A stretch of DNA of 14,334 bases. Source: a virus. Both the position numbers and the translations under genes were made by a program. Within the stretch, counting starts at the first letter, position 1, and the number at the start of each line of letters is the position of its first letter. The notes under the pieces were generated by a model. It was not told where the DNA came from, did no database searches, and saw only the letters and a list, made by a program, of their open reading frames with translations. The stretch lies in UHGV virus genome UHGV-2204358; one strand, given 5' to 3'. Shown here in pieces: positions 1-10,649 of the stretch.

Positions 1-441
1 CTGGAAAGGCTGGGCCATACTCCTCCGGCAGAAGCAGAAAAAGCTTATTATGCTTCCATCGGAAACGATGATCTGGCAGCCTGAGTTCACAGATAAAATA
101 CTCTCCAGGAAACCCGGGGCGGTTCAGTGCTGGGAAGTCTGCGAATTAGAGAAAGCGTAAGCAAGATTGGGGGGAAAATCGGTAAACGTTTGGGCCATGA
201 AAAACAATGGTCACTACACGACCTTAGAAGAACGCTATCTACTCATCTAAGTGATCTCGGTGTTGAATTTTATGTAGTAGAACAACTGTTAGGCCATGCG
301 CTACCTGGCGTGGCGGGTGTTTACAACCGGAGTAAGTTTATGGCTAAAAAACTGGATGCTCTGGAACTCTGGACTACATATCTCAATAGCATCGCAGGTG
401 CTGATTCAAAAGTGACAATCCTCAAACAAAAGGCTGGTTAA
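1..441 (+). pseudogene. P4-type tyrosine integrase, C-terminal catalytic region only (ORF 127..441 from GTG); upstream reading frame interrupted, so probably a truncated or frameshifted integrase remnant
   Basis: Translation 127..441 shows the tyrosine-recombinase C-terminal signature (HDLRRT ... LLGHALPGVAGVYNRSKF). In-frame stops at 82-84 and 94-96 prevent upstream extension. Frame 2 upstream contains LSRKPG, which may be the displaced preceding integrase segment. Confidence 0.6.
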
Positions 442-442
442 C

Positions 443-673
443 ATGAAAAAAATGGCAATTGTTGATAAAAAGGGTCTGGAGTACATTCCTAACATCGATC
501 GTATGATCCGTGAGAAAGAATGTCGGGAGCTAACCACTCTTGCGAACAGCACACGCTGGAAGCTGGAGAAGGAAGGAAAATTTCCTAAGCGGATCAAGAT
601 TGGTTCCACTGCTGTTGCATATCGTCTTTCAGAAGTGCAGGCATGGATTCGAGGTGAGTGGGAAACGACTTAA
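443..673 (+). CDS. alpA: AlpA-family phage transcriptional regulator / excisionase-like HTH protein
   Basis: 76 aa ORF starting 2 nt after the integrase stop. Motif ELTTLANSTRWKLEKEGKFPKRIKIGSTAVAYRLSEVQAWI matches the AlpA (Phage_AlpA) helix-turn-helix pattern. Confidence 0.75.
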   Translation: MKKMAIVDKKGLEYIPNIDRMIREKECRELTTLANSTRWKLEKEGKFPKRIKIGSTAVAYRLSEVQAWIRGEWETT

Positions 674-690
674 CTATTAGGTGGGGCATT

Positions 691-1512
691 GTGGCTATAT
701 TTCATTATACAGATCTTTTTGGTTTGAAAGGTATATTAGACTCTAATTCTTTATGGGCTACAAATATATATTTCTTAAATGATAAAGAGGAGTCTAACCA
801 TGGATGTGAATGTTTTCGAAATACAATTAAAATAGTTGATGATAATATCATCCCAAAAGATAAGAAAACTATTTTGCTCAAGTCTCTTGACATGTATGAG
901 AAAGGGAAGTTACAAAAAGAAAAAGGGATTGATAAACATGTTTATAGCATATCTTTTTGTAAAGAAAACGATAAGTTAAGTCAGTGGAGAGGTTACGGAA
1001 ATAAACAGGGCGTTTGCATTGAATTTGATGCGGATGAACTTGTGAGTTTTTGTCAAAATATTTATTTAAATTGTGTTGCACATGATGTTATATATTCAAA
1101 TAATGACGATATTACAAAGATGAGTAAGGAGTTGGATGAGTTTTTTTCTTGTAATGGTATTAACATTAAAGAAATGAATGATCATTTTGTAACAATGGTC
1201 TCTACGTATCAATTTATATCTAAATATATCCCATTTTTTAAACATCCTAGTTTTATCGAAGAAAATGAATTTAGACTGGTGTTTACTCCGTGGATACAAA
1301 TGCCAGATGTGAAATTTAGAATAAATAATAATGGTATCATCCCTTATATCATTATTAATAATAAAGATAATAGAAAGTTACCAATTAAAAGCATTACAAT
1401 TGGCCCGACAAGCGATTATGATTTTATTGAGGCTGGTATAAAAATGTTTTTGGATTCAAGAGGATTTGGTTCTGTGGAAATTAAATCCTCATCAATTCCA
1501 TTCAGGGGGTAA
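691..1512 (+). CDS. DUF2971-like protein in AT-rich cargo segment; candidate accessory or anti-phage gene
   Basis: Long ORF (track 658..1512). Start most likely GTG 691, with AGGTGG 6 nt upstream at 679-684. N-terminal FHYT...GILDSNSLWATNIYFLNDKEE, mid SISFCKENDKLSQWRGYGNKQGVCIEFD and FKHPSFIEENEFRLVF resemble DUF2971 signatures recalled from memory. Sequence is visibly AT-rich, suggesting foreign origin. Confidence 0.6.
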   Translation: MAIFHYTDLFGLKGILDSNSLWATNIYFLNDKEESNHGCECFRNTIKIVDDNIIPKDKKTILLKSLDMYEKGKLQKEKGIDKHVYSISFCKENDKLSQWRGYGNKQGVCIEFDADELVSFCQNIYLNCVAHDVIYSNNDDITKMSKELDEFFSCNGINIKEMNDHFVTMVSTYQFISKYIPFFKHPSFIEENEFRLVFTPWIQMPDVKFRINNNGIIPYIIINNKDNRKLPIKSITIGPTSDYDFIEAGIKMFLDSRGFGSVEIKSSSIPFRG

Positions 1513-1557
1513 GGATTAACACTCTTAATCTATGATATTATAAAAATGGTAGATAAA

Positions 1558-1577
1558 GGCGACCAGAATTGGTCGCC
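1558..1577. terminator. Perfect 8-bp inverted repeat (GGCGACCA GAAT TGGTCGCC) between convergent genes; probable bidirectional or minus-strand intrinsic terminator
   Basis: Stem-loop seen directly. On the minus strand it is followed by a T-rich run (TTTATCTACCATTTTTATAAT). It lies 46 nt after the plus-strand stop at 1512 and 67 nt after the minus-strand stop at 1644. Confidence 0.45.
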
Positions 1578-1643
1578 AATGTGAGTATATAGTTAGCCTT
1601 AATCAGAATACGAGGTTATCGCCTGATAGGCAATGTGAACAGT

Positions 1644-2000
1644 TCAATATTTAGGTGGTTCAACAAGAGCGTTTATCATTGCTCTCAAATTATCGCGAAC
1701 ACTTATCCAAGTCTGTTCTGCTCGTTCTAACTCATCAGTGTACAACTTTAATGTTTTATCTATGCCATATGTGGCTATTAAATTTATAGCTTCTTGTAAT
1801 TTTTCGGGATTATTCCTTCTTGGGGGAGTGAATATACCGCGGATTTTTCCGGTAATTAAAGCTTTACGGTGTCTACATAGAATACCTTTACTTCCTGCTG
1901 GACAATTACAAGTCATGATTAGAGAGCCAGAATCGTTTGATACAGTGACTATGTATACATCCAAACTACTGCTACTTGTTGCGAAGAATTCGTATTTCAT
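1644..2000 (-). CDS. Small SWIM-type zinc-finger protein (C-x-C-x9-C-x-H), unknown function
   Basis: 118 aa ORF with strong RBS (AAGGAG, 7 nt before the ATG at 2000). Motif CNCPAGSKGILCRH fits the SWIM zinc-finger pattern CxCxnCxH. Lies 27 nt downstream of the RHH gene on the same strand (operon). Confidence 0.6.
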   Translation of the reverse strand: MKYEFFATSSSSLDVYIVTVSNDSGSLIMTCNCPAGSKGILCRHRKALITGKIRGIFTPPRRNNPEKLQEAINLIATYGIDKTLKLYTDELERAEQTWISVRDNLRAMINALVEPPKY

Positions 2001-2027
2001 GTGTTAGCTCCTTGACTTCAATTATTC

Positions 2028-2219
2028 TTATCCTTTTGGTTCAATACCGCGCCGTAGCAGCTCTTTGCGCCCTAATTCTTTAAGCCAGTTGGCTAGGCTT
2101 ATGCCGTCGCTCTGCGCTTCTTTGTCGAATTGCTCTTTTAGCTCTGGAGAAATTCGCATTCTGAATTGTGGAGATTGCCCATCACCCTTAGGACTTTTAT
2201 CGCGTTTGATCGTTGACAA
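2028..2219 (-). CDS. Arc/Mnt-like ribbon-helix-helix DNA-binding protein; candidate repressor or antitoxin
   Basis: C-terminal translation SPQFRMRISPELKEQFDKEAQSDGISLANWLKELGRKELLRRGIEPKG matches the Arc-type RHH pattern (PQFnlRlp.elke....A...g.S.N). Start is uncertain: TTG at 2219 with AGGTGG upstream, or ATG at 2159. The long 2028..2342 ORF in the track is probably an over-extension. Confidence 0.55.
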   Translation of the reverse strand: MSTIKRDKSPKGDGQSPQFRMRISPELKEQFDKEAQSDGISLANWLKELGRKELLRRGIEPKG

Positions 2220-2265
2220 GTGACCACCTATTGAATTAGCCTTTTCATTGTTAGGTGACCACCTT
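2220..2265. promoter_or_regulatory. Divergent promoter/operator region with two direct copies of GTGACCACCT (2220-2229 and 2256-2265)
   Basis: Repeats seen directly in the intergenic region between the minus-strand RHH gene and the plus-strand replication operon. A TTGACA hexamer lies at 2213-2218. Confidence 0.3.
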
Positions 2266-2358
2266 AACACGGAGGCACTTAAAAAAGCAAAGCCCGAAGG
2301 TGCTAGGAACACCAACGGGCTTCTAACCACCAACGATAGCAACAGTATCGAGGTAGCT

Positions 2359-2562
2359 ATGAGAAATCATACCACACACCCGCAAGGGCGGGACCCGCAC
2401 AACCTGAATAAATACATCTGGCGTTTTATCGCCCTGAGTACGGCACAACCGCGCGTGATTACCATCGAGGCCGCCAGCGAACAGGAAGCCCGGCTGCAAT
2501 CCCCAACTGGCTACGTGATGATATTCGCCGCCCGTATTCGTCAGGAGGTGTGCCATGAATGA
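2359..2562 (+). CDS. Small Icd-like (host cell division inhibitor-like) protein typical of P4-like satellites
   Basis: 67 aa from ATG 2359 with GAGGT RBS. Sequence MRNHTTHPQGRDPHNLNKYIWRFIALSTAQPRVITIEAASEQEARLQSPTGYVMIFAARIRQEV resembles, from memory, the small proteins annotated Icd-like in enterobacterial P4-like elements. The track ORF 2248..2562 is probably over-extended. Confidence 0.5.
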   Translation: MRNHTTHPQGRDPHNLNKYIWRFIALSTAQPRVITIEAASEQEARLQSPTGYVMIFAARIRQEVCHE

Positions 2563-2779
2563 TCTTTATTTTAAAGTGCTGACACATGCTGAAAACGCGC
2601 TCGTTTGTGGCAAAAATATGCGAGAAATCTTATCAACCTGGCTTGATGGGACAACAAATGCGGAACACGATGAACGGGATGCTAATTTAGCTGGAGCGTT
2701 AATTACGTTACTTGATCCTGTCATCAAAGAGCTGGATGAAGCTATAAAAATACACGACCAGAGCTATACCGGAGAATAA
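2555..2779 (+). CDS. Hypothetical small protein (74 aa), translationally coupled to the upstream gene
   Basis: ATG at 2555 overlaps the upstream stop (ATGAATGA). AGGAGG RBS at about 2543-2548. No recognisable domain. Confidence 0.55.
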   Translation: MNDLYFKVLTHAENALVCGKNMREILSTWLDGTTNAEHDERDANLAGALITLLDPVIKELDEAIKIHDQSYTGE

Positions 2780-2782
2780 AAA

Positions 2783-3070
2783 ATGAAAAATAAATTTTCT
2801 GGCTTTATTGCCAGCGGTCAAACTCATTCAAAAATCAGCCTTGGGGATATTTTCAAAGACAGCTATGGCTATCGGGTAAAGATTATTTCGGTTGATGATC
2901 GTCGTGTCTCTTATTTGCGTGATGGTTATGATTTTGAATGTGTTATGCCGCGTCAGCAGTTCGAAAGAGATTTCATTCTGGTAAAAAATTGCAAGACAGA
3001 TAATCAGAGGCGTGCCGCAGGCTATATCCGTAAAATTCGGGCAATGTTAGTTGCCGGAGGTAACAAATGA
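2783..3070 (+). CDS. Hypothetical small protein, DUF4222-like
   Basis: 95 aa ORF with GGAGAA RBS. Pattern YGYRVKIISVDDRRVSYLRDGYDFECVMPRQQFERDF resembles DUF4222 prophage proteins (recalled, not searched). Confidence 0.55.
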   Translation: MKNKFSGFIASGQTHSKISLGDIFKDSYGYRVKIISVDDRRVSYLRDGYDFECVMPRQQFERDFILVKNCKTDNQRRAAGYIRKIRAMLVAGGNK

Positions 3071-4887
3071 AACGTGCTCCGAACTTAAAATACCAACCGC
3101 GCGACAAAATGACGGAAGTCATCATTTTTGCTGGCAGTGATGCCTGGAGCCATGCAAAAGAATGGAATGAATGGGCAGGTAAGCATATTGCAGCAGATGA
3201 TACACCACCAGTCATTCTGGGTACGGAACAACTGGAAAACCTGGATGATATGCAAATTATCGATGAAGGCCGTCATTATGTGCGTGTTTATCGTGCCGGA
3301 AAGATTGCAGAGAAAAGTCTGACGAAGGTTGCGACATTACTTGCTATTGCAGGCGTAAAGGAAGCACGTTGTTACCGTAGCTTTGTTGATCGAGAGCCTG
3401 AAGACTGGACTCCGCGCCTTGTCGGCCTAAAAGCTGAAGCGGAGCATGGGGAAAGTCTGGTGATTGAACTGCCAGTGAAGAAGGCAGAGCGCAAAAATGA
3501 CGAGCGTGCTTCATCTTTGGCGTTGAATCAGATGGGGGCCAGCCAGCGCGGTGAAGTTCTCCTTGCACATTATGGCGGTGAACTGGCAATCAATGCCGAC
3601 TCTGACACCGTTCATCATTACAACGGCGTTGTATGGGAGCCGGTTCAGGATAAAGAGTTACAGCGTGCTATGGCGCAGATTTTCATTGATGCGGAGATCA
3701 GCTATTCGCAGAACGCTATTAAATCGGCGGTAGATACCATGAAGTTAAGTTTGCCTGTAATGGGGAATACAGCCCGTAACCTGATTGGATTCAGTAACGG
3801 GGTATTTGATACCAGAACTGGTAATTTTCGGGAGCATAACAAAAACGACTGGTTGTTAATTGCCAGTGAATTACCTTTCAGCCCACCAGCAGAGGGGGAA
3901 ACGCTGGCAACACATGCGCCGAATTTCTGGAAGTGGTTGCGCCGTTCGGTGGCTGAGAATGACCGCAAGGCAGATCGCGTACTGGCGGCATTATTCATGG
4001 TGCTGGCGAACCGGTACGACTGGCAGTTATTCATTGAGGTAACAGGGCCGGGGGGAAGTGGTAAAAGTGTGATGGCGGAGATTTGCACCATGCTGGCGGG
4101 TAAGGCTAATACAGTATCAGCAAGCATGAAGGCGCTGGAAGATGCAAGGGAACGTGCGTTAGTGGTTGGCTTTTCGCTGATTATCATGCCGGATATGACC
4201 CGCTACGCTGGTGATGGGGCAGGGATTAAGGCCATTACAGGCGGTGACAAGGTGGCAATTGACCCGAAACACAAAGCCCCCTATTCAACGCGTATTCCGG
4301 CAGTAGTGCTGGCGGTTAACAATAACGCCATGTCATTCAGTGACCGCAGCGGGGGGATCTCACGTCGTCGGGTGATATTCAATTTTTCGGAAGTTGTACC
4401 GGAGAACGAACGCGATTCGATGCTGGCGGAAAAAATAGAAGGTGAGCTGGCGGTAGTGATTCGTCATCTGCTTACACGGTTTGCTGATCAGGACGAAGCC
4501 AGACGCCTGTTATATGAGCAGCAGAAATCTGAAGAAGCACTGGCGATAAAGCGAGAGGGGGATTCGCTGGTGGACTTCTGCGGCTATCTCATGGCATCGG
4601 TAATGTGTGATGGCCTGTTAGTGGGTAATGCTGAAATTGTGCCATTCAGCCCACGCAGGTATCTCTATCATGCCTATCTGGCTTATATGAGGGCACATGG
4701 GTTTGGTAAACCTGTAACACTGACGCGCTTCGGTAAAGATATGCCGGGGGCAATGGCGGAATATGGCAGGGAGTATATGAAACGGAAAACGAAGCACGGT
4801 TTGCGTTCAAACGTGACACTGACGGAGGAATCAGAAGACTGGATGCCATCATGTGTATCGGTCACTAATGACGATAGCAAAAATTAA
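3067..4887 (+). CDS. Satellite replication protein: P4-alpha/D5-type primase-helicase (COG3378-like) with P-loop NTPase domain
   Basis: 606 aa ORF. Walker A motif VTGPGGSGKSV. Start ATG overlaps the previous stop (ATGA) with GGAGGT RBS. Followed immediately by an iteron array, the classic pri/rep-ori arrangement. Confidence 0.85.
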   Translation: MKRAPNLKYQPRDKMTEVIIFAGSDAWSHAKEWNEWAGKHIAADDTPPVILGTEQLENLDDMQIIDEGRHYVRVYRAGKIAEKSLTKVATLLAIAGVKEARCYRSFVDREPEDWTPRLVGLKAEAEHGESLVIELPVKKAERKNDERASSLALNQMGASQRGEVLLAHYGGELAINADSDTVHHYNGVVWEPVQDKELQRAMAQIFIDAEISYSQNAIKSAVDTMKLSLPVMGNTARNLIGFSNGVFDTRTGNFREHNKNDWLLIASELPFSPPAEGETLATHAPNFWKWLRRSVAENDRKADRVLAALFMVLANRYDWQLFIEVTGPGGSGKSVMAEICTMLAGKANTVSASMKALEDARERALVVGFSLIIMPDMTRYAGDGAGIKAITGGDKVAIDPKHKAPYSTRIPAVVLAVNNNAMSFSDRSGGISRRRVIFNFSEVVPENERDSMLAEKIEGELAVVIRHLLTRFADQDEARRLLYEQQKSEEALAIKREGDSLVDFCGYLMASVMCDGLLVGNAEIVPFSPRRYLYHAYLAYMRAHGFGKPVTLTRFGKDMPGAMAEYGREYMKRKTKHGLRSNVTLTEESEDWMPSCVSVTNDDSKN

Positions 4888-4900
4888 ACTTATGGAATAA

Positions 4901-5123
4901 CTGTTCACCACTGTTCACCCTGTCATAAATATCTTTTATATCAGTATATTATAGGGTGAACAGTTATTTATGAACTGTTCACCAAACTATTCACTGTTCA
5001 CCTTTTTGATTGTTTATTGAGCTTCAAGGGTGAACAGTGGTGAACAGTTGGTGAATAGTTTTTGTGAAACTGTTTACCCATTAACATTATGAATTAAAAG
5101 AGAAAATATCAAAAGGTGAACAG
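4901..5123. repeat. Iteron-type replication origin: at least 9 copies of 9-bp CTGTTCACC / GGTGAACAG in both orientations with AT-rich spacers
   Basis: CTGTTCACC at 4901, 4911, 4975, 4994. GGTGAACAG at 4955, 5029, 5039, 5115. Variants GGTGAATAG at 5050 and CTGTTTACC at 5070. Tandem pairs at 10-bp phasing. AT-rich stretch 4921-4954. Sits directly downstream of the primase-helicase gene. Confidence 0.7.
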
Positions 5124-5174
5124 ATGAAGGGTTAAAACGCAAAAATTTTAATTTACTGCTGTGAGATAAAGCCT

Positions 5175-5420
5175 ATGACAGCGAAGCACACAAAAAAATC
5201 ACAATCGCACGCCCTTGATTTGACGGAATACTGGTTAAGGGTGTCGATAAAAATCATCGACCGCAACGCCGGGGAAGGATACGCGAAAGCACATCCCGAA
5301 CTGATTAGCGCATTCATGACAACGGCGGCTGCAAACTTTGCCACTCTGACCGAACGGGAGATTGCTGAAGCGGAGGAAGTGACAACAATCAATATTAAGT
5401 CCGGAGAGCAGGCCGCATGA
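5175..5420 (+). CDS. Hypothetical protein (81 aa)
   Basis: ORF whose stop overlaps the start of the SSB-like gene (ATGA). No recognisable domain. Confidence 0.5.
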   Translation: MTAKHTKKSQSHALDLTEYWLRVSIKIIDRNAGEGYAKAHPELISAFMTTAAANFATLTEREIAEAEEVTTINIKSGEQAA

Positions 5421-5866
5421 CGGCGCAAATATCAGTTTACGGGCGGTCGGTGGACGACCCGCAGACAAAACAGACCAGCAAGGGCACCCCCATGACGTTG
5501 GCGCGTATGGCGGTATCACTGCCCTGCAGTCAGTCGGATGACGGTCAGGCGACGATGTGGTTATCTGTCCTGGCGTTTGGCAGACAAGCCGACGCGCTGG
5601 CAAAGCATCACAAAGGCGAACTCCTGAGCGTGGCGGGTAACATGCAGATGAGCCAGTGGACTGGACAGAACGGCGAAACGCGGCAGGGCTGGCAGGTTAT
5701 CGCAGACAGCGTAATCAGTGCGCGATCGGTGCGACCGGGCGGCAATAAAGGCCAACAGGGGCAGGCTACTGACGCACTGAACAGAGCAAAACAACAGGCA
5801 GATCAGCAAGGAAGCCAGCCACCAGTGGGAGATAATGAGCAATGGGGAGATGATATCCCGTTTTAA
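5417..5866 (+). CDS. ssb: SSB-like single-stranded DNA-binding protein with conserved C-terminal acidic DDIPF tail
   Basis: 149 aa. OB-fold-like N-terminal region (ISVYGR...TMWLSVLAFGRQA...GNMQMSQWTGQNGETRQGWQVIADSV), Gly/Gln-rich linker, and the protein ends in WGDDIPF, the hallmark SSB C-terminal tip. Confidence 0.75.
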   Translation: MTAQISVYGRSVDDPQTKQTSKGTPMTLARMAVSLPCSQSDDGQATMWLSVLAFGRQADALAKHHKGELLSVAGNMQMSQWTGQNGETRQGWQVIADSVISARSVRPGGNKGQQGQATDALNRAKQQADQQGSQPPVGDNEQWGDDIPF

Positions 5867-5885
5867 ATATTGCCAATAAAAAAAG

Positions 5886-5909
5886 GCCGGAAAAAATAAA
5901 TTTTCCGGC
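5886..5909 (+). terminator. Stem-loop (GCCGGAAAA AATAAA TTTTCCGGC) after the SSB-like gene; probable intrinsic terminator
   Basis: 9-bp inverted repeat seen directly, 20 nt after the stop at 5866. Separates the replication operon from the capsid-gene pair. Confidence 0.45.
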
Positions 5910-6083
5910 ATGCTACATAAATCCCGACCAAAGGGAGTGAAGATATTAACACTAATTGTCCGCACTGAAGTTGTCACCCCAAAACTTTATACAACATTGC
6001 ACTCGGTTGCATGTGTTCGCATGACAAATATCGGTGATAGCATATATCCACAATTATTTTTAATGAATGCAAAGAGGATGCGT

Positions 6084-7124
6084 ATGGTTGATTTATATTC
6101 GCCTACTCAGCTTGTACAGGTGGTTAATGCTGTAGATGTACAAAAAAAATTAAATGCGTTGTTTACCAGTTTGTTTTTCACTCGCTCGGTAATGTTTGAA
6201 TCGAGAGACATTATTCTTGATACGATCGACGATCCAAATATCCCGATCGCGGCGTTTTGCTCTCCTATGGTGGGCAGTAAAGTTTCACGAGATGAGGGAT
6301 ACGAATCAAAAACAATTCGTCCAGGTTATATGAAGCCGAAAAGCAGCATTGATCCAAATAAGTTAGCTGTGCGCCCTGTTGGTGTGTCACCTGAGCAATA
6401 CAATGCTTTTGGGGCGCGTAATATTAAAGTTAAACAGGCGATTGTAAATCAGGCTAAAGCTATTCGTGCACGTATTGAATGGCTTGCTGTTCAGGCAATC
6501 ACAACGGGGAAAAATATCATTGAGGGCGATGGTATTGAACGTTATGAGCTGGACTGGAATATAAAACCACAAAATATCATCACTCAGTCTGGCGGTACTG
6601 AGTGGTCAGGTAAGGATAAAGAAACTTTTGATCCAAATGATGATATTGAGAGCTACGCAGAATTTAGTGAGGGCGTCACTAATATCATCATTATGGGTGG
6701 TAATGTATGGAAGAAATACCGTTCATTCAGAGCGATAAAAGAGGCTTTGGATACCCGTCGTGGTTCTAATTCCGAACTGGAAACGGCCCTTAAAGACCTT
6801 GGTGATTCGGTGAGTTTTAAAGGGTATATGGGCGATGTTGCGATTGTTGTTTACAGCGGGCGTTATACCGACGAGGACGGAACAGAAAAACATTTCCTTG
6901 ATCCTGATTTGATGGTGCTTGGCAATACGGCTCTTCAGGGGATTGTCGCCTATGGCGGTATTCAGGATCCGGAGCTAATCCGAATGGGGCTGACTAAAGC
7001 CGAACTTGCACCGAAAAACTATATTGTGCCTGGTGATCCGGCTATTGAATATGTGCAGACACATTCAGCACCACAGCCAATACCGGCCCGCATCAATCGT
7101 TTTGTTACCGTTCGCATTGGCTAA
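6084..7124 (+). CDS. Lambda gpE-like major capsid protein homolog (Phage_cap_E family), diverged copy encoded by the island
   Basis: Translation aligns along its length with lambda gpE (GYMKPK, ITQSGGTEWS, DTRRGSNSELETA, AIVVYSG), at roughly half identity by eye to the prophage E copy at 9861..10649. Start placed at ATG 6084 (AAGAGG RBS, matches the gpE N-terminus MVDLYSPTQL). The track start at 5910 gives an unsupported N-terminal extension. Confidence 0.85.
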   Translation: MVDLYSPTQLVQVVNAVDVQKKLNALFTSLFFTRSVMFESRDIILDTIDDPNIPIAAFCSPMVGSKVSRDEGYESKTIRPGYMKPKSSIDPNKLAVRPVGVSPEQYNAFGARNIKVKQAIVNQAKAIRARIEWLAVQAITTGKNIIEGDGIERYELDWNIKPQNIITQSGGTEWSGKDKETFDPNDDIESYAEFSEGVTNIIIMGGNVWKKYRSFRAIKEALDTRRGSNSELETALKDLGDSVSFKGYMGDVAIVVYSGRYTDEDGTEKHFLDPDLMVLGNTALQGIVAYGGIQDPELIRMGLTKAELAPKNYIVPGDPAIEYVQTHSAPQPIPARINRFVTVRIG

Positions 7125-7133
7125 GGGGGAGCA

Positions 7134-7475
7134 ATGGCTACTCATTACACTGAACTCATGGCTGGCACTGAAGCACTGGTGACTACGCTGGGGATATTTT
7201 CAGCTAATAAAGGGGTAATTCCTGCATTTACGCCACTGATGCAGGAAGATGCAACAGGTGCACTGGTGGTATGGGATGGTTCGAGCGTAGGTAAAGCGGT
7301 TTATGTTTCCGCTGTACAAATCGACACCGCGAAAAAAACACAGGCTCAGGTCTATAAGACAGGTGTCTTAAATGTTGATGCTCTGAACTGGCCTGAGTCT
7401 GTTAAAGAACTGTCAGTAAAGGTTGCAGCGTTTGTTGGCTCAGGTATTTCTGTTCAGCCGCTGGCTCGTGTGTAA
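7134..7475 (+). CDS. Lambda gpD-like head decoration protein homolog
   Basis: 113 aa. TPLMQEDATGALVVWDGSSVGKAV ... WPE ... AFVGSGISV parallels lambda gpD ([25 protein letters not shown] ... WPE ... AFAGTAISIV). Strong RBS AAGGGGGAG. Confidence 0.75.
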   Translation: MATHYTELMAGTEALVTTLGIFSANKGVIPAFTPLMQEDATGALVVWDGSSVGKAVYVSAVQIDTAKKTQAQVYKTGVLNVDALNWPESVKELSVKVAAFVGSGISVQPLARV

Positions 7476-7486
7476 AGGGGGATACA

Positions 7487-7870
7487 ATGCAGAATGATTA
7501 CAATGACCTTAAGCCAATTGCCGAAATGATGTACCCGAATCCAGCTGTAGAGGAATTAAAAGCTATCGCTGACAAAATGTGTTTAAGCGAGCGCCTTGTT
7601 GATATGAATCAGGTGATGGAAATTACAACCCTGAGTCGTCGTACACTGCTAAACCTTGAGGCTAGTGGAGAGTTCCCGGAGCGTGTGCAGGTTACGGAAG
7701 GGCGTAAGGCCTGGTATTTAAGTGAAGTGATCGACTGGATAAATAATATTCCTCGCGCTTCTGAATATTGCCGCGTACCTGTCCCAAAAAAGCCAGATGC
7801 GGCGCTATGCCTCAAGATTGAGCGTGTACGCCGCAATGCACGGGATGGTCGCTATAAGCTGATTGGTTGA
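7487..7870 (+). CDS. Second AlpA/Vis-like HTH DNA-binding protein (127 aa)
   Basis: Central segment MNQVMEITTLSRRTLLNLEASGEFPERVQVTEGRKAWYLSEVIDWI matches the AlpA-family HTH pattern. RBS AAGGGGGA. Confidence 0.6.
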   Translation: MQNDYNDLKPIAEMMYPNPAVEELKAIADKMCLSERLVDMNQVMEITTLSRRTLLNLEASGEFPERVQVTEGRKAWYLSEVIDWINNIPRASEYCRVPVPKKPDAALCLKIERVRRNARDGRYKLIG

Positions 7871-8795
7871 TGAAATTAGGGCCCGCTCTGGCTGGCGGGT
7901 CCTTTCCGGCGATCCAGAACGTTACGGGGCGTCAGGCGCGCAGTTTTTCTCTATTTATGGAAATTTTCCGGTTTAAGGCTTTTCCGTTCTTCTTCGCCGT
8001 AACTTTATGTTTTTATTTAAAATACCCCCTGAAAAGAAAGGAAATGACAGGCGCTGAAAACGGGCTTTTTGGCCTCTGCCGTTTCCTTTCTCTGATTTTG
8101 TTGCTGTTTGTCACGGCCTATCGCCAGAAAAAACTCTCATGCTTGCGTTGAAATCAGGCTCTACACTAAAGTAGTCGATAACGCGCCACTGGCTTCACTT
8201 TATGGTCGTGGCCTACTTCTGCACTATCGCAACAGCCTTACGAGTCCTGCTGGTAAGCTGTTGAGTAAGCAGAATACGGATTACAGGGCATCCTATGCGT
8301 ATTGTGGCGGATCGAACACAACCGCTCAGGTGAAACCCGTTTCGTTACTATTATAGGAAAATCTTCATACCCAACTTGCTTGATAACTTCTTCTGGTTGT
8401 TTTAACCATGTAGAGATGATATTTCCCTGAAAAATTGCTTTCCCTCTGACTAGATGCGCATACCACATTTTGTCTTCGACATAGAACCGCGCAGAAATGA
8501 TTACTCCACAGATACGGTTCTTTCGTCAATTCATTATGGAATGGGCTCAAAAGGGAGAGCTCAACAATAAAGTTCTGGTAGGATAATTGTATGCTTACAA
8601 TTGTAATGAAAGGAGAGTTAGAGCCTGGTGTGATTCTGTGTGTAAAATTTTAGCAAATTACGTTTAATTAAGTGTCGTAACACACCATGCCTGTCAGATA
8701 TTACGCTTATCATAGAGTGTATGATATTGCTTTTCTAAACAATAAGCTGTTATATTTTATGGGTATTGTGTTTAATTTTTAATGACGGCTCTAAC

Positions 8796-9731
8796 ATGAC
8801 CCCTGATGCAGTTTTGATTGCTAAAGCAATACTAATGTTGAAAGCAGATGTTGATTATACAAAAGATTATGTATTCCCTATTGCATTATCTTTTTTATCG
8901 GCGCTTATGGGAGGCTTAACTGCTTATTGCATCAATAATAGGCAGGAGAAGATTAAAATAGAAACGGAGAAATTTAATTCTGCTAATACGCTTATGATGG
9001 TTTCTTTTCAGATGATAAATACACTTGTGGGAATTAAAAGTAGTTATATTGGTTTGAGATCTAGAAATCCAATATTAAGAGCGCTGGCAATAAATGAATT
9101 TTTATTTAACGCCGGGGAGGTAAATTTCGATATTAGCCGTCTTTCATTTATAAAAAAGATACCCACAGCTAATAAATCTCTATTTGAGAGGTTTGTTTTT
9201 TTTATTAAGTACAAGATACTAAAACATGAACTTATTATGCCGTCAGATGAAGAAATTGGAAAGTCATGGAGGAATATTGCTCGAATTGATGCTTTTTTGT
9301 TTAATTATAATTTTGTTTTGAAAAGTTTAATTGTCAGGAATCAGCTTGATTCAGATTTAAAGAAACGTTTGTCTAATATTGCCAGTAAAGACAAGCCAGT
9401 GTTTGAAATTAAATTGGATGAAATAAAGAAAGAAATTGGTGCTAGTGAGTTGTCAAAATATATTGATTTGACAGAAAGTATAGTGGCGTTGATCGATTAT
9501 CTCATAAGGGAAATTGATTCATTTATTATGGAGTTCCCGAAGGTAGCGGAAAGTAATATTGAGTTATCTAAGGTGAATAAAGCTAAATTATCAACAATTG
9601 TTCTCAATAAGCCAGCATATTTGGCTGCATTGATTCCAATTCCACAACCTGACTTTGAATTAGTATCTTTACTAGTGGGTATGAGCCCAGAAGAAGCAAA
9701 GCAAAGATATTCGTATTCTGGTTGGCACTAG
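8796..9731 (+). CDS. Hypothetical AT-rich protein with a predicted N-terminal transmembrane helix; function unknown
   Basis: Long ORF (track 8766..9731 from TTG; ATG at 8796 preferred). Hydrophobic segment VFPIALSFLSALMGGLTAYCI. Strongly AT-rich, unlike the flanking DNA. No recognisable domain. Confidence 0.6.
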   Translation: MTPDAVLIAKAILMLKADVDYTKDYVFPIALSFLSALMGGLTAYCINNRQEKIKIETEKFNSANTLMMVSFQMINTLVGIKSSYIGLRSRNPILRALAINEFLFNAGEVNFDISRLSFIKKIPTANKSLFERFVFFIKYKILKHELIMPSDEEIGKSWRNIARIDAFLFNYNFVLKSLIVRNQLDSDLKKRLSNIASKDKPVFEIKLDEIKKEIGASELSKYIDLTESIVALIDYLIREIDSFIMEFPKVAESNIELSKVNKAKLSTIVLNKPAYLAALIPIPQPDFELVSLLVGMSPEEAKQRYSYSGWH

Positions 9732-9860
9732 TAGATATAGTGACATACCTTTGCGAAGCGCTGTATTGCTACGTGTATTGCTTTTTAGCTGTATTTTGAT
9801 AGAGAGAGCCATTTATTTCATTAAAAATCATTCAGTTCCTTTCATATTTGACTCATGTAA

Positions 9861-10649
9861 CCCAAGCATGAGGTGAATCCGCAGATGACCCTGCGTCGCC
9901 TGCCGGATGAAGATCCGCAGAATCTGGCGGACCCGGCTTACCGCCGCCGTCGCATCATCATGCAGAACATGCGTGACGAAGAGCTGGCCATTGCTCAGGT
10001 CGAAGAGATGCAGGCAGTTTCTGCCGTGCTTAAGGGCAAATACACCATGACCGGTGAAGCCTTCGATCCGGTTGAGGTGGATATGGGCCGCAGTGAGGAG
10101 AATAACATCACGCAGTCCGGCGGCACGGAGTGGAGCAAGCGTGACAAGTCCACGTATGACCCGACCGACGATATCGAAGCCTACGCGCTGAACGCCAGCG
10201 GTGTGGTGAATATCATCGTGTTCGATCCGAAAGGCTGGGCGCTGTTCCGTTCCTTCAAAGCCGTCAAGGAGAAGCTGGATACCCGTCGCGGCTCTAATTC
10301 CGAGCTGGAGACAGCGGTAAAAGACCTGGGCGAAGCGGTGTCCTATAAGGGAATGTATGGCGATACGGCGATCGTCGTGTATTCCGGACAGTACGTGGAA
10401 AACGACGTCAAAAAGAACTTCCTGCCGGACAACACGATGGTGCTGGGGAACACTCAGGCACGCGGTCTGCGCACCTATGGCTGCATTCAGGATGCGGACG
10501 CACAGCGCGAAGGTATTAACGCCTCTGCCCGCTACCCGAAAAACTGGGTGACCACCGGCGATCCGGCGCGTGAGTTCACCATGATTCAGTCAGCACCGCT
10601 GATGCTGCTGGCTGACCCTGATGCGTTCGTGTCCGTACAACTGGCGTAA
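9861..10649 (+). pseudogene. E: Lambda major capsid protein E, 5'-truncated (lacks about the first 80 codons)
   Basis: Translation from 9861 (PKHEVNPQMTLRRLPDEDPQ ... FVSVQLA) is near-identical to lambda gpE from about residue 80 to the C-terminus. A TAA stop at 9858-9860 and unrelated AT-rich DNA lie immediately upstream. The only in-frame start is GTG 9873. Confidence 0.8.

Follow-up and report, generated by a model that had tools for sequence, protein, structure and literature searches.

The window analyzed here (the whole 14,334-nucleotide stretch presented as UHGV virus genome UHGV-2204358) is Escherichia coli DNA and carries a phage-inducible chromosomal island (PICI) of the EcCICFT073/Eco567.11capE type. 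The gap at 4888 to 5174 very probably serves as this island's origin of replication. About 11 to 12 copies of GGTGAACAG within the gap are predicted sites for the winged-helix C terminus of a superfamily 3 (SF3) helicase initiator that is encoded directly upstream and resembles the alpha protein of satellite phage P4. A sequence-only reading of the same DNA had proposed a module of initiator gene and origin (rep-ori) at this place, and its architecture is borne out by the array lying after the initiator gene, by an origin-binding domain (OBD) of the P4 alpha type, by a layout conserved among relatives, and by an iteron word that varies together with the wing of the binding domain. The surroundings are those of a PICI: an integrase gene (int), alpA, a unidirectional string of genes, homologues of capsid and decoration genes, and the cos region of a helper phage were all found.

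The exact 9-mer CTGTTCACC or its complement GGTGAACAG occurs eight times on the two strands of the window, and all eight copies lie within 4901 to 5123. On the plus strand they are found at 4901 to 4909 (14 bp past the initiator stop codon, which ends at 4887), 4911 to 4919 (10 bp from the preceding copy), 4975 to 4983, and 4994 to 5002, and on the minus strand at 4955 to 4963 (where the plus strand reads GGTGAACAG), 5029 to 5037, 5039 to 5047, and 5115 to 5123. Three degenerate iterons complete the array: CTATTCACT at 4987 to 4995 (plus; two mismatches, exact or with one mismatch in relatives), which overlaps the next iteron at 4994 to 4995; CTATTCACC at 5050 to 5058 (minus; one mismatch); and CTGTTTACC at 5070 to 5078 (plus; one mismatch). 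Alignment with relatives points to a decayed 12th iteron, ATGAAGGGT, at 5124 to 5132 (minus), where relatives have GTGAACAC. The earlier claim of at least nine exact copies is therefore lowered to eight in this window, while the variants and both orientations were recovered as described; strains 95-3322 and NRG857c have nine exact copies because the 5070 site is exact there. With up to one mismatch allowed, the window holds 17 matches compared to 2.65 expected, a number reached in 0 of 200 shuffles. Ten of the 17 are inside the array, and the other seven are single, dispersed, and chance-like; no second cluster of the iteron word was found in the window.

The geometry of the array is as regular as its content. 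It occupies a 287-bp gap (4888 to 5174) between the stop codon of the 606-amino-acid gene and the next open reading frame (ORF) at 5175, with a GC content of 32.7% compared to about 50 to 55% in the flanking genes. Tandem spacing at helical phasing, as proposed from the sequence, was confirmed in the 10- to 11-bp steps 4901/4911 and 5029/5039/5050. The AT-rich stretch placed at 4921 to 4954 also held up, with 20% GC over the first spacer (4920 to 4954), and there are two further AT-rich spacers, a central one at 5003 to 5028 (27% GC) and a third at 5079 to 5114 (17% GC). As a whole, the array is a large imperfect palindrome: five pairs of sites in opposite orientation are symmetric about 5015.5, an arrangement matched by 0 of 1,000 random layouts. 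The left set of iterons is mostly on the plus strand and the right set mostly on the minus strand, with the central spacer between them as a candidate site of melting and helicase loading. Beyond the last iteron, an AT-rich element at 5135 to 5160, conserved across genera in origins of the window's iteron class (AACG-YATATTTTTTAATTTTATAG in relatives), could be an unwinding element or a promoter of the operon of ssb and capsid genes that follows. An Rfam scan of the whole window gave no match.

The initiator gene (3067 to 4887, plus strand; 606 amino acids; Pfam D5_N, DUF5906, and Pox_D5) is an intact ORF whose product is ~100% identical to many database proteins among the matches listed. Its product has an N-terminal Toprim-like domain, a D5_N/SF3 helicase, and a C-terminal OBD. 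Residues 498 to 594 (97 residues, encoded at 4558 to 4848, plus strand) match the OBD of P4 alpha, PDB 1ka8, with an E value of 1.9e-24 (phmmer). Over its whole length the protein is 43% identical to alpha, with values of 64% for the helicase core and 49% for the OBD. Alpha itself consists of a DnaG-type primase, an SF3 helicase, and the 1ka8 winged helix, and winged helices of this kind touch DNA with a recognition helix and a beta-hairpin wing (PMC2777425). The island initiator thus shares with alpha a 1ka8-type C-terminal winged-helix OBD placed after an SF3 helicase.

The resemblance to P4 extends to the DNA. The type I iteron of P4, TGTTCACC, is identical to the core of the island iteron, and even the 9-mer GGTGAACAG is shared. 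The C-terminal domain of alpha is reported to bind type 1 iterons. In the P4 GenBank record, NC_001609, the octamer TGTTCACC is labeled "ori type 1 repeat," with six copies in ori and ten in crr; ori reads GGTGAACAGTGGTGAACAGACGGTGAACAG and holds the window's 9-mer GGTGAACAG. The crr site of P4 lies directly 3′ of the alpha gene, the same position that the array has relative to the initiator gene, and both the crr unit and the array (in its third AT-rich spacer) have the 15-nucleotide spacer motif AATTAAAAGAGAAAA beside an iteron. By blastn, 5024 to 5096 is 77% identical to P4. Used as a bare word in a literature search, TGTTCACC gave results dominated by primer sequences.

Functional evidence comes from EcCICFT073, the prototype PICI of Gram-negative bacteria (Fillol-Salom et al. 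2018), in which a clone of the homologous rep-ori segment keeps a temperature-sensitive plasmid at the restrictive temperature and clones deleted for rep or for ori fail to do so (PMC6092414). EcCICFT073 and the window have the same order of int, alpA, DUF4222 gene, initiator, ori, small ORF, ssb, capsid, decoration, and AlpA-like genes. In both, the origin is directly 3′ of the initiator gene and has two inverted sets of iterons around AT-rich DNA, with nearly equal number, spacing, and orientation of sites. The two origins differ in the iteron word: EcCICFT073 has GGTAGA(C/T)A, the window GGTGAACAG. No iteron word of the GGTGAACAG class occurs in the text or supplements of the EcCICFT073 paper, Fig. 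2a aside, and that paper speaks of distant homology to P4 and of independent evolution (PMC6092414).

P4 and the island also differ in several respects. P4 needs two separate sites, ori and crr, which its record places ~4.7 kb from each other, whereas the island has one array; crr consists of two 120-bp direct repeats, whereas the island array is one 230-bp imperfect palindrome; alpha has a zinc finger and an active DnaG-type primase region (PMC2777425), both of which the island initiator is without; and the remainder of the window element is PICI-like and not P4-like. In a rival explanation, the array is a cis-acting enhancer similar to crr, and the initiator bound there acts on a separate start site elsewhere. 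The position of the array 3′ of an alpha-type gene is that of crr, and the shared AATTAAAAGAGAAAA with its flanking iterons and the 77% identity of 5024 to 5096 to P4 agree with this idea. Such an enhancer is nevertheless unlikely, since the complete island has one cluster only and the EcCICFT073 rep-ori clone replicates alone (PMC6092414). In the complete island with its flanks (24 kb), nine of ten iteron-word matches fall in the array, with no second cluster resembling P4 ori, and the array is dyad symmetric instead of being built from two direct repeats of 120 bp.

Comparison with other genera showed that the array is a standing part of this replicon. One genome per species was scanned in other Enterobacterales, yielding 368 relatives, from which 80 loci were kept. 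The sequence-only reading had staked its proposal on related elements retaining the repeats, and an enriched array of 7- to 8-mers was found within ~300 bp past the stop codon in nearly all 80 loci. Twenty loci that were mapped in detail have the same order and orientation of sites with almost the same spacings, and the origin is likewise directly 3′ of the initiator gene in loci L085, L001, and L087. The core words fall into five or six classes: GGTGAACA, GGTAGACA, GGTGGAGA, GGCGGACA, GGTGGACA, and GGTAGATA. The most frequent is GGTGAACA(G/C), with 65 sequences, including P4 and the window, followed by GGTGGAGA(C) with eight and GGTAGACA with five; GGCGGACAG was found in three sequences and GGTGGACAG and GGTAGATAG in one each. 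Dyad symmetry of the array is present in classes A, B, and C alike. Across genera in class A, which is the class of the window, iteron columns are 73% conserved, compared to 57% for spacer columns (P = 3e-5).

The iteron word switches together with the wing loop of the initiator, so that the comparison with related islands proposed earlier did reveal a swapping of specificity. The wing loop of the window's OBD (amino acids ~570 to 584, YMKRKTKHGLRSNVT, encoded at 4774 to 4818, plus strand) is a putative specificity determinant. Loops specific to a class (KRK-----TKHGIRSN, KRKQCTRGPDKGRTISN, RKKS----TKGNMRSN, KAESKKKATRGRIQSN, and TRT-----IKGRRQTN) covary with the iteron class in a domain that is otherwise conserved. 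The ends of DNA homology follow the same division. Between the window and class-A relatives (68 to 77% DNA identity), homology crosses the stop codon into the origin and ends at 5128 to 5154 in four of five cases and at 5007 in one. Between the window and all 14 loci tested from classes B, C, D, and D2 (71 to 85% identity), homology ends at 4766 to 4789 (codons 567 to 574), where the wing loop starts or shortly ahead of it. The wing, the C-terminal tail, and the iteron array are thus swapped as one cassette, as would be expected if the wing reads the iteron word.

A second recurrent joint is situated at ~3526 (codon 153), at the border of the N-terminal domain and the helicase, where homology to many genera begins (~3520 to 3532). 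The initiator gene is made up of three exchangeable modules. Iteron class is independent of the type of N-terminal domain, with classes A and B each occurring with short (~600 amino acids) and long, P4-like (~800 amino acids) proteins. The window's protein and the EcCICFT073 initiator share 44% identity over their whole length, with 50% for the N-terminal domain, 57% for the helicase core, and 33% for the DNA-binding domain. The window's protein is a mosaic, with an N-terminal domain like that of EcCICFT073 rather than that of P4 and a helicase and OBD nearer to P4 alpha. That primase-replicase genes move from one satellite family to another has been noted before (PMC10085698).

The N-terminal domain (amino acids 1 to 135; 3067 to 3471, plus strand) has a Toprim-like fold, but DnaG-type primase activity is improbable for it. 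The zinc finger and DnaG-type primase region of P4 alpha (Toprim Glu and DxD) are without a counterpart in the initiator. Strand 1 ends in an invariant FAGSDAW motif, in which Ala replaces the catalytic Glu of Toprim, and a DxD was not found after strand 3. Primase activity of this domain is therefore rather unlikely, and priming by host DnaG would be the simplest alternative. The label "primase-helicase" given earlier to this gene holds for its SF3 helicase domain, whereas the primase part is not established, the N-terminal domain being Toprim-like without the canonical Glu and DxD. An AlphaFold model of the full-length initiator had a pLDDT of 39 and was unusable, and a model of the N-terminal domain alone was used. 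In a protein search with this domain alone, the matches were fragments and deletion fusions only. Six database proteins (P0130, P0136, P0137, P0160, P0174, and P0179) have the N-terminal domain fused straight to SSB, PerC, or capsid sequence; such fusions suggest recurrent deletions of the helicase, binding domain, and origin in decaying islands.

A published element with practically the same replication module is Eco567.11capE of strain NRG857c, a helper-embedded PICI described in a paper that does not use the word "iteron" (PMC10111431). Its origin gap is identical to that of the window at 284 of 287 positions, its initiator is identical at 605 of 606, its core (2415 to 8101 of the window) is 98.5% identical, and it too is inserted into capsid gene E of a lambdoid prophage. 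The two differ in cargo at 663 to 2414 and 8102 to 9847 and in int, which is interrupted by an IS3-family element in the window. After excision, the attP:attB ratio of 11capE was ~1 in two of three repeats and 1.6 to 1.9 in one (PMC10111431), so that autonomous replication could be weak, late, or dependent on the helper. The earlier claim that the island replicates autonomously after induction finds an echo in this near-identical element, if a weak one, with a ratio above 1 in the single repeat.

These ratios are among several points that weigh against an origin at 4888 to 5174. Origin activity has been demonstrated for EcCICFT073, whose iteron class differs from that of the window allele. P4 uses the same iterons as two distant sites, and the sufficiency of a single array has been shown for EcCICFT073 only. 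DnaA boxes are absent from 4888 to 5174, and their count in the whole window is at chance level. The initiator has no recognizable active primase. Finally, the integrase gene of this copy is cut by the IS3-family element. Bases 1 to ~120 are 100% identical to IS3 transposase regions present in 4,059 of 5,426 E. coli genomes, and the reading frame upstream of the 3′ part of int carries stops. Because int is interrupted, excision of this copy is doubtful; the island is probably locked in place, and the capsid gene of the prophage would stay split too.

Several of the same observations would suit a relic, that is, an array whose origin no longer fires in an embedded island copied passively with its helper prophage. 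In addition to the weak or absent postexcision replication of 11capE and the interrupted int, the 5070 iteron bears a mutation that other strains do not have, and decay has reached the 12th site. In opposition to this, the initiator ORF is intact and has a single difference from that of 11capE, the iterons are more constrained than the spacers, and the region is kept in 594 of 5,426 complete E. coli genomes, 493 of them with at least 95% identity. We regard a relic as very unlikely.

It is also possible that the array is mainly an operator for transcription or copy control, at which bound initiator would stop or adjust read-through from early genes into the ssb-capsid operon or would pair copies by handcuffing, with a secondary or absent role as an origin. 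Plasmid iteron origins double as control sites. The array is placed inside a unidirectional string of genes without a terminator-like site, and the conserved AT-rich element at 5135 to 5160, immediately ahead of the next ORF, might serve as a promoter. A consensus scan of 4700 to 5400 found no sigma-70-like promoter and no terminator-like site, and the conservation of a symmetric 230-bp layout, its three AT-rich spacers included, goes well past what an operator would require. The homologous region of EcCICFT073 has demonstrated origin activity, and a control role would be compatible with origin function rather than an alternative to it. An operator in place of an origin is thus highly improbable. 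A packaging signal (cos or pac) or a chance cluster of AT-rich, low-complexity sequence might be supposed, given that the intergenic DNA is rich in AT and in repeats and that the element is phage related, but both are effectively refuted by the shuffles (none of 200 reaching the motif count), by a lambda-like cos region 3 kb away at ~7915 to 8100, and by the covariation of the word with the DNA-binding domain of the replication protein.

Taking the gap to be the origin, we infer from P4 alpha and other SF3 initiators how binding, melting, double-ring loading, and priming might proceed. Initiator monomers would take up the two inverted half-arrays, contacting the iterons via helix 3 and the wing. 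Helicase rings might then form on AT-rich DNA between or beside the iteron blocks, and the dyad symmetry suggests two rings facing apart, back to back, at or near 5003 to 5028. The melted duplex would be coated by SSB, either the island's own (encoded at 5417 to 5866) or the host's, after which the host replisome would take over, with primers probably supplied by host DnaG.

Other origins offer partial parallels to this arrangement. SV40 large T and papillomavirus E1 combine an SF3 helicase with an OBD of their own and act on inverted sites around a center with AT-rich flanks. By analogy, the layout of the array would fit head-to-head loading of a double ring, although the OBD folds of these proteins are unrelated and the window array is much longer. 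The origins of the pathogenicity islands of Staphylococcus aureus (SaPIs) reportedly lie directly 3′ of rep, with two iteron sets bordering an AT-rich region, and the initiator helicase of SaPIs is likewise said to have a sequence-specific C-terminal part. SaPIs are said to differ in having separate pri and rep genes and in iterons and a binding domain whose sequences are not detectably related to those of the window. Plasmid iteron origins (RepA, pi, and TrfA), which have DnaA boxes and a WH1-WH2 Rep protein, are unlike the window, which is without DnaA boxes and has an SF3-helicase initiator.

The remaining features describe the island and its site. The IS3-family element end (1 to ~120) is followed by the terminal ~105 codons of a gene for a tyrosine integrase (127 to 441) and by alpA (443 to 673). 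The DUF4222 gene (2783 to 3070) overlaps the start of the initiator gene by ATGA (3067 to 3070) and has the same place in EcCICFT073 and 11capE. Its product has no similarity to P4 cnr, which has the equivalent position, and no cnr homologue was found. Downstream of the origin are a gene for an 81-amino-acid protein (5175 to 5420, plus strand; phrog_1231), also adjacent to the origin in EcCICFT073 and 11capE; the gene for the island-encoded SSB (5417 to 5866, plus strand; Pfam SSB, E value of 6e-15); a capsid gene like lambda E (5910 to 7124); a decoration gene like D (7134 to 7475); and an AlpA-like gene (7487 to 7870). The lambda-like cos region (~7915 to 8100) was recognized from a cosB-like string, ...TTTATGGAAATTTTCCGGTTTAAGGC...GAAAAGAAAGGAAATGACAGG... 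(R3-I1-R2-R1), with a diverged cosN; a search for the exact lambda cosN gave no match, and similarity to the cos/Nu1 regions of numerous lambdoid phages begins at 7895. The C-terminal part of lambdoid prophage capsid gene E is found at 9873 to 10649, ahead of FI, a head-tail attachment gene, Z, and tail genes. This is the capE-site configuration of helper-embedded PICIs, and in loci L001 (6058 to 6303 and 17017 to 17805) and L087 (9095 to 9340 and 20409 to 21197) both halves of gpE flank the island. A search for the att core by the longest shared word returned a 12-mer that is probably spurious.

Cargo is variable and is found between alpA and the DUF4222 gene, with more from the cos region to gene E. 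Two hot spots, 663 to 2414 and 8102 to 9847, differ among islands that are otherwise 98% identical. In the window, the cargo comprises a DUF2971 protein, a SWIM-finger protein, and a 321-amino-acid protein (phrog_21267), for which PADLOC gave marginal matches only. Elsewhere, strain 95-3322 has terS and DUF2971, NRG857c has HEPN and DUF262, and further strains carry TIR, Abi, or restriction genes.

An origin of this type, with its position and architecture, has already been published, as have its experimental validation for a sister element and the family of embedded islands, and the finding itself adds little beyond confirming the rep-ori module of a satellite class with a demonstrated origin. 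Three points may not have been spelled out before: that this allele uses the exact P4 type I iteron with a P4-type OBD, that a fixed joint marks the exchange of wing and iteron array as one cassette, and that the "primase" domain looks catalytically degenerate. Given the known movement of primase-replicase genes between satellites (PMC10085698), none of the three is unexpected in kind. More tentatively, and with considerable doubt on our part, the island could be a recombinant replicon that joins a degenerate PICI Toprim N-terminal domain to a P4-alpha-type cassette of helicase, wing, and iterons, in which one palindromic array has replaced ori and crr, with cross-talk between P4-like and capE-PICI origins and a wing "code" of at least five orthogonal pairs swapped at codon ~570.

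What the comparison adds is, first, that this E. coli PICI replicon is directly related to that of P4, compared to the distant homology and independent evolution described earlier (PMC6092414). The source of primers comes into question as well, since the so-called primase is without catalytic residues. The survey further provides a natural data set that ties a short protein loop to a DNA word through five or six classes of specificity and one fixed joint, and that could be of use in building orthogonal replicons and in predicting cross-talk or incompatibility between satellites. On the tentative reading of a recombinant replicon, with the 9-mer and the class of OBD being those of P4, P4-like satellites and capE PICIs residing in the same E. 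coli cell could fire, titrate, or block each other's origins.
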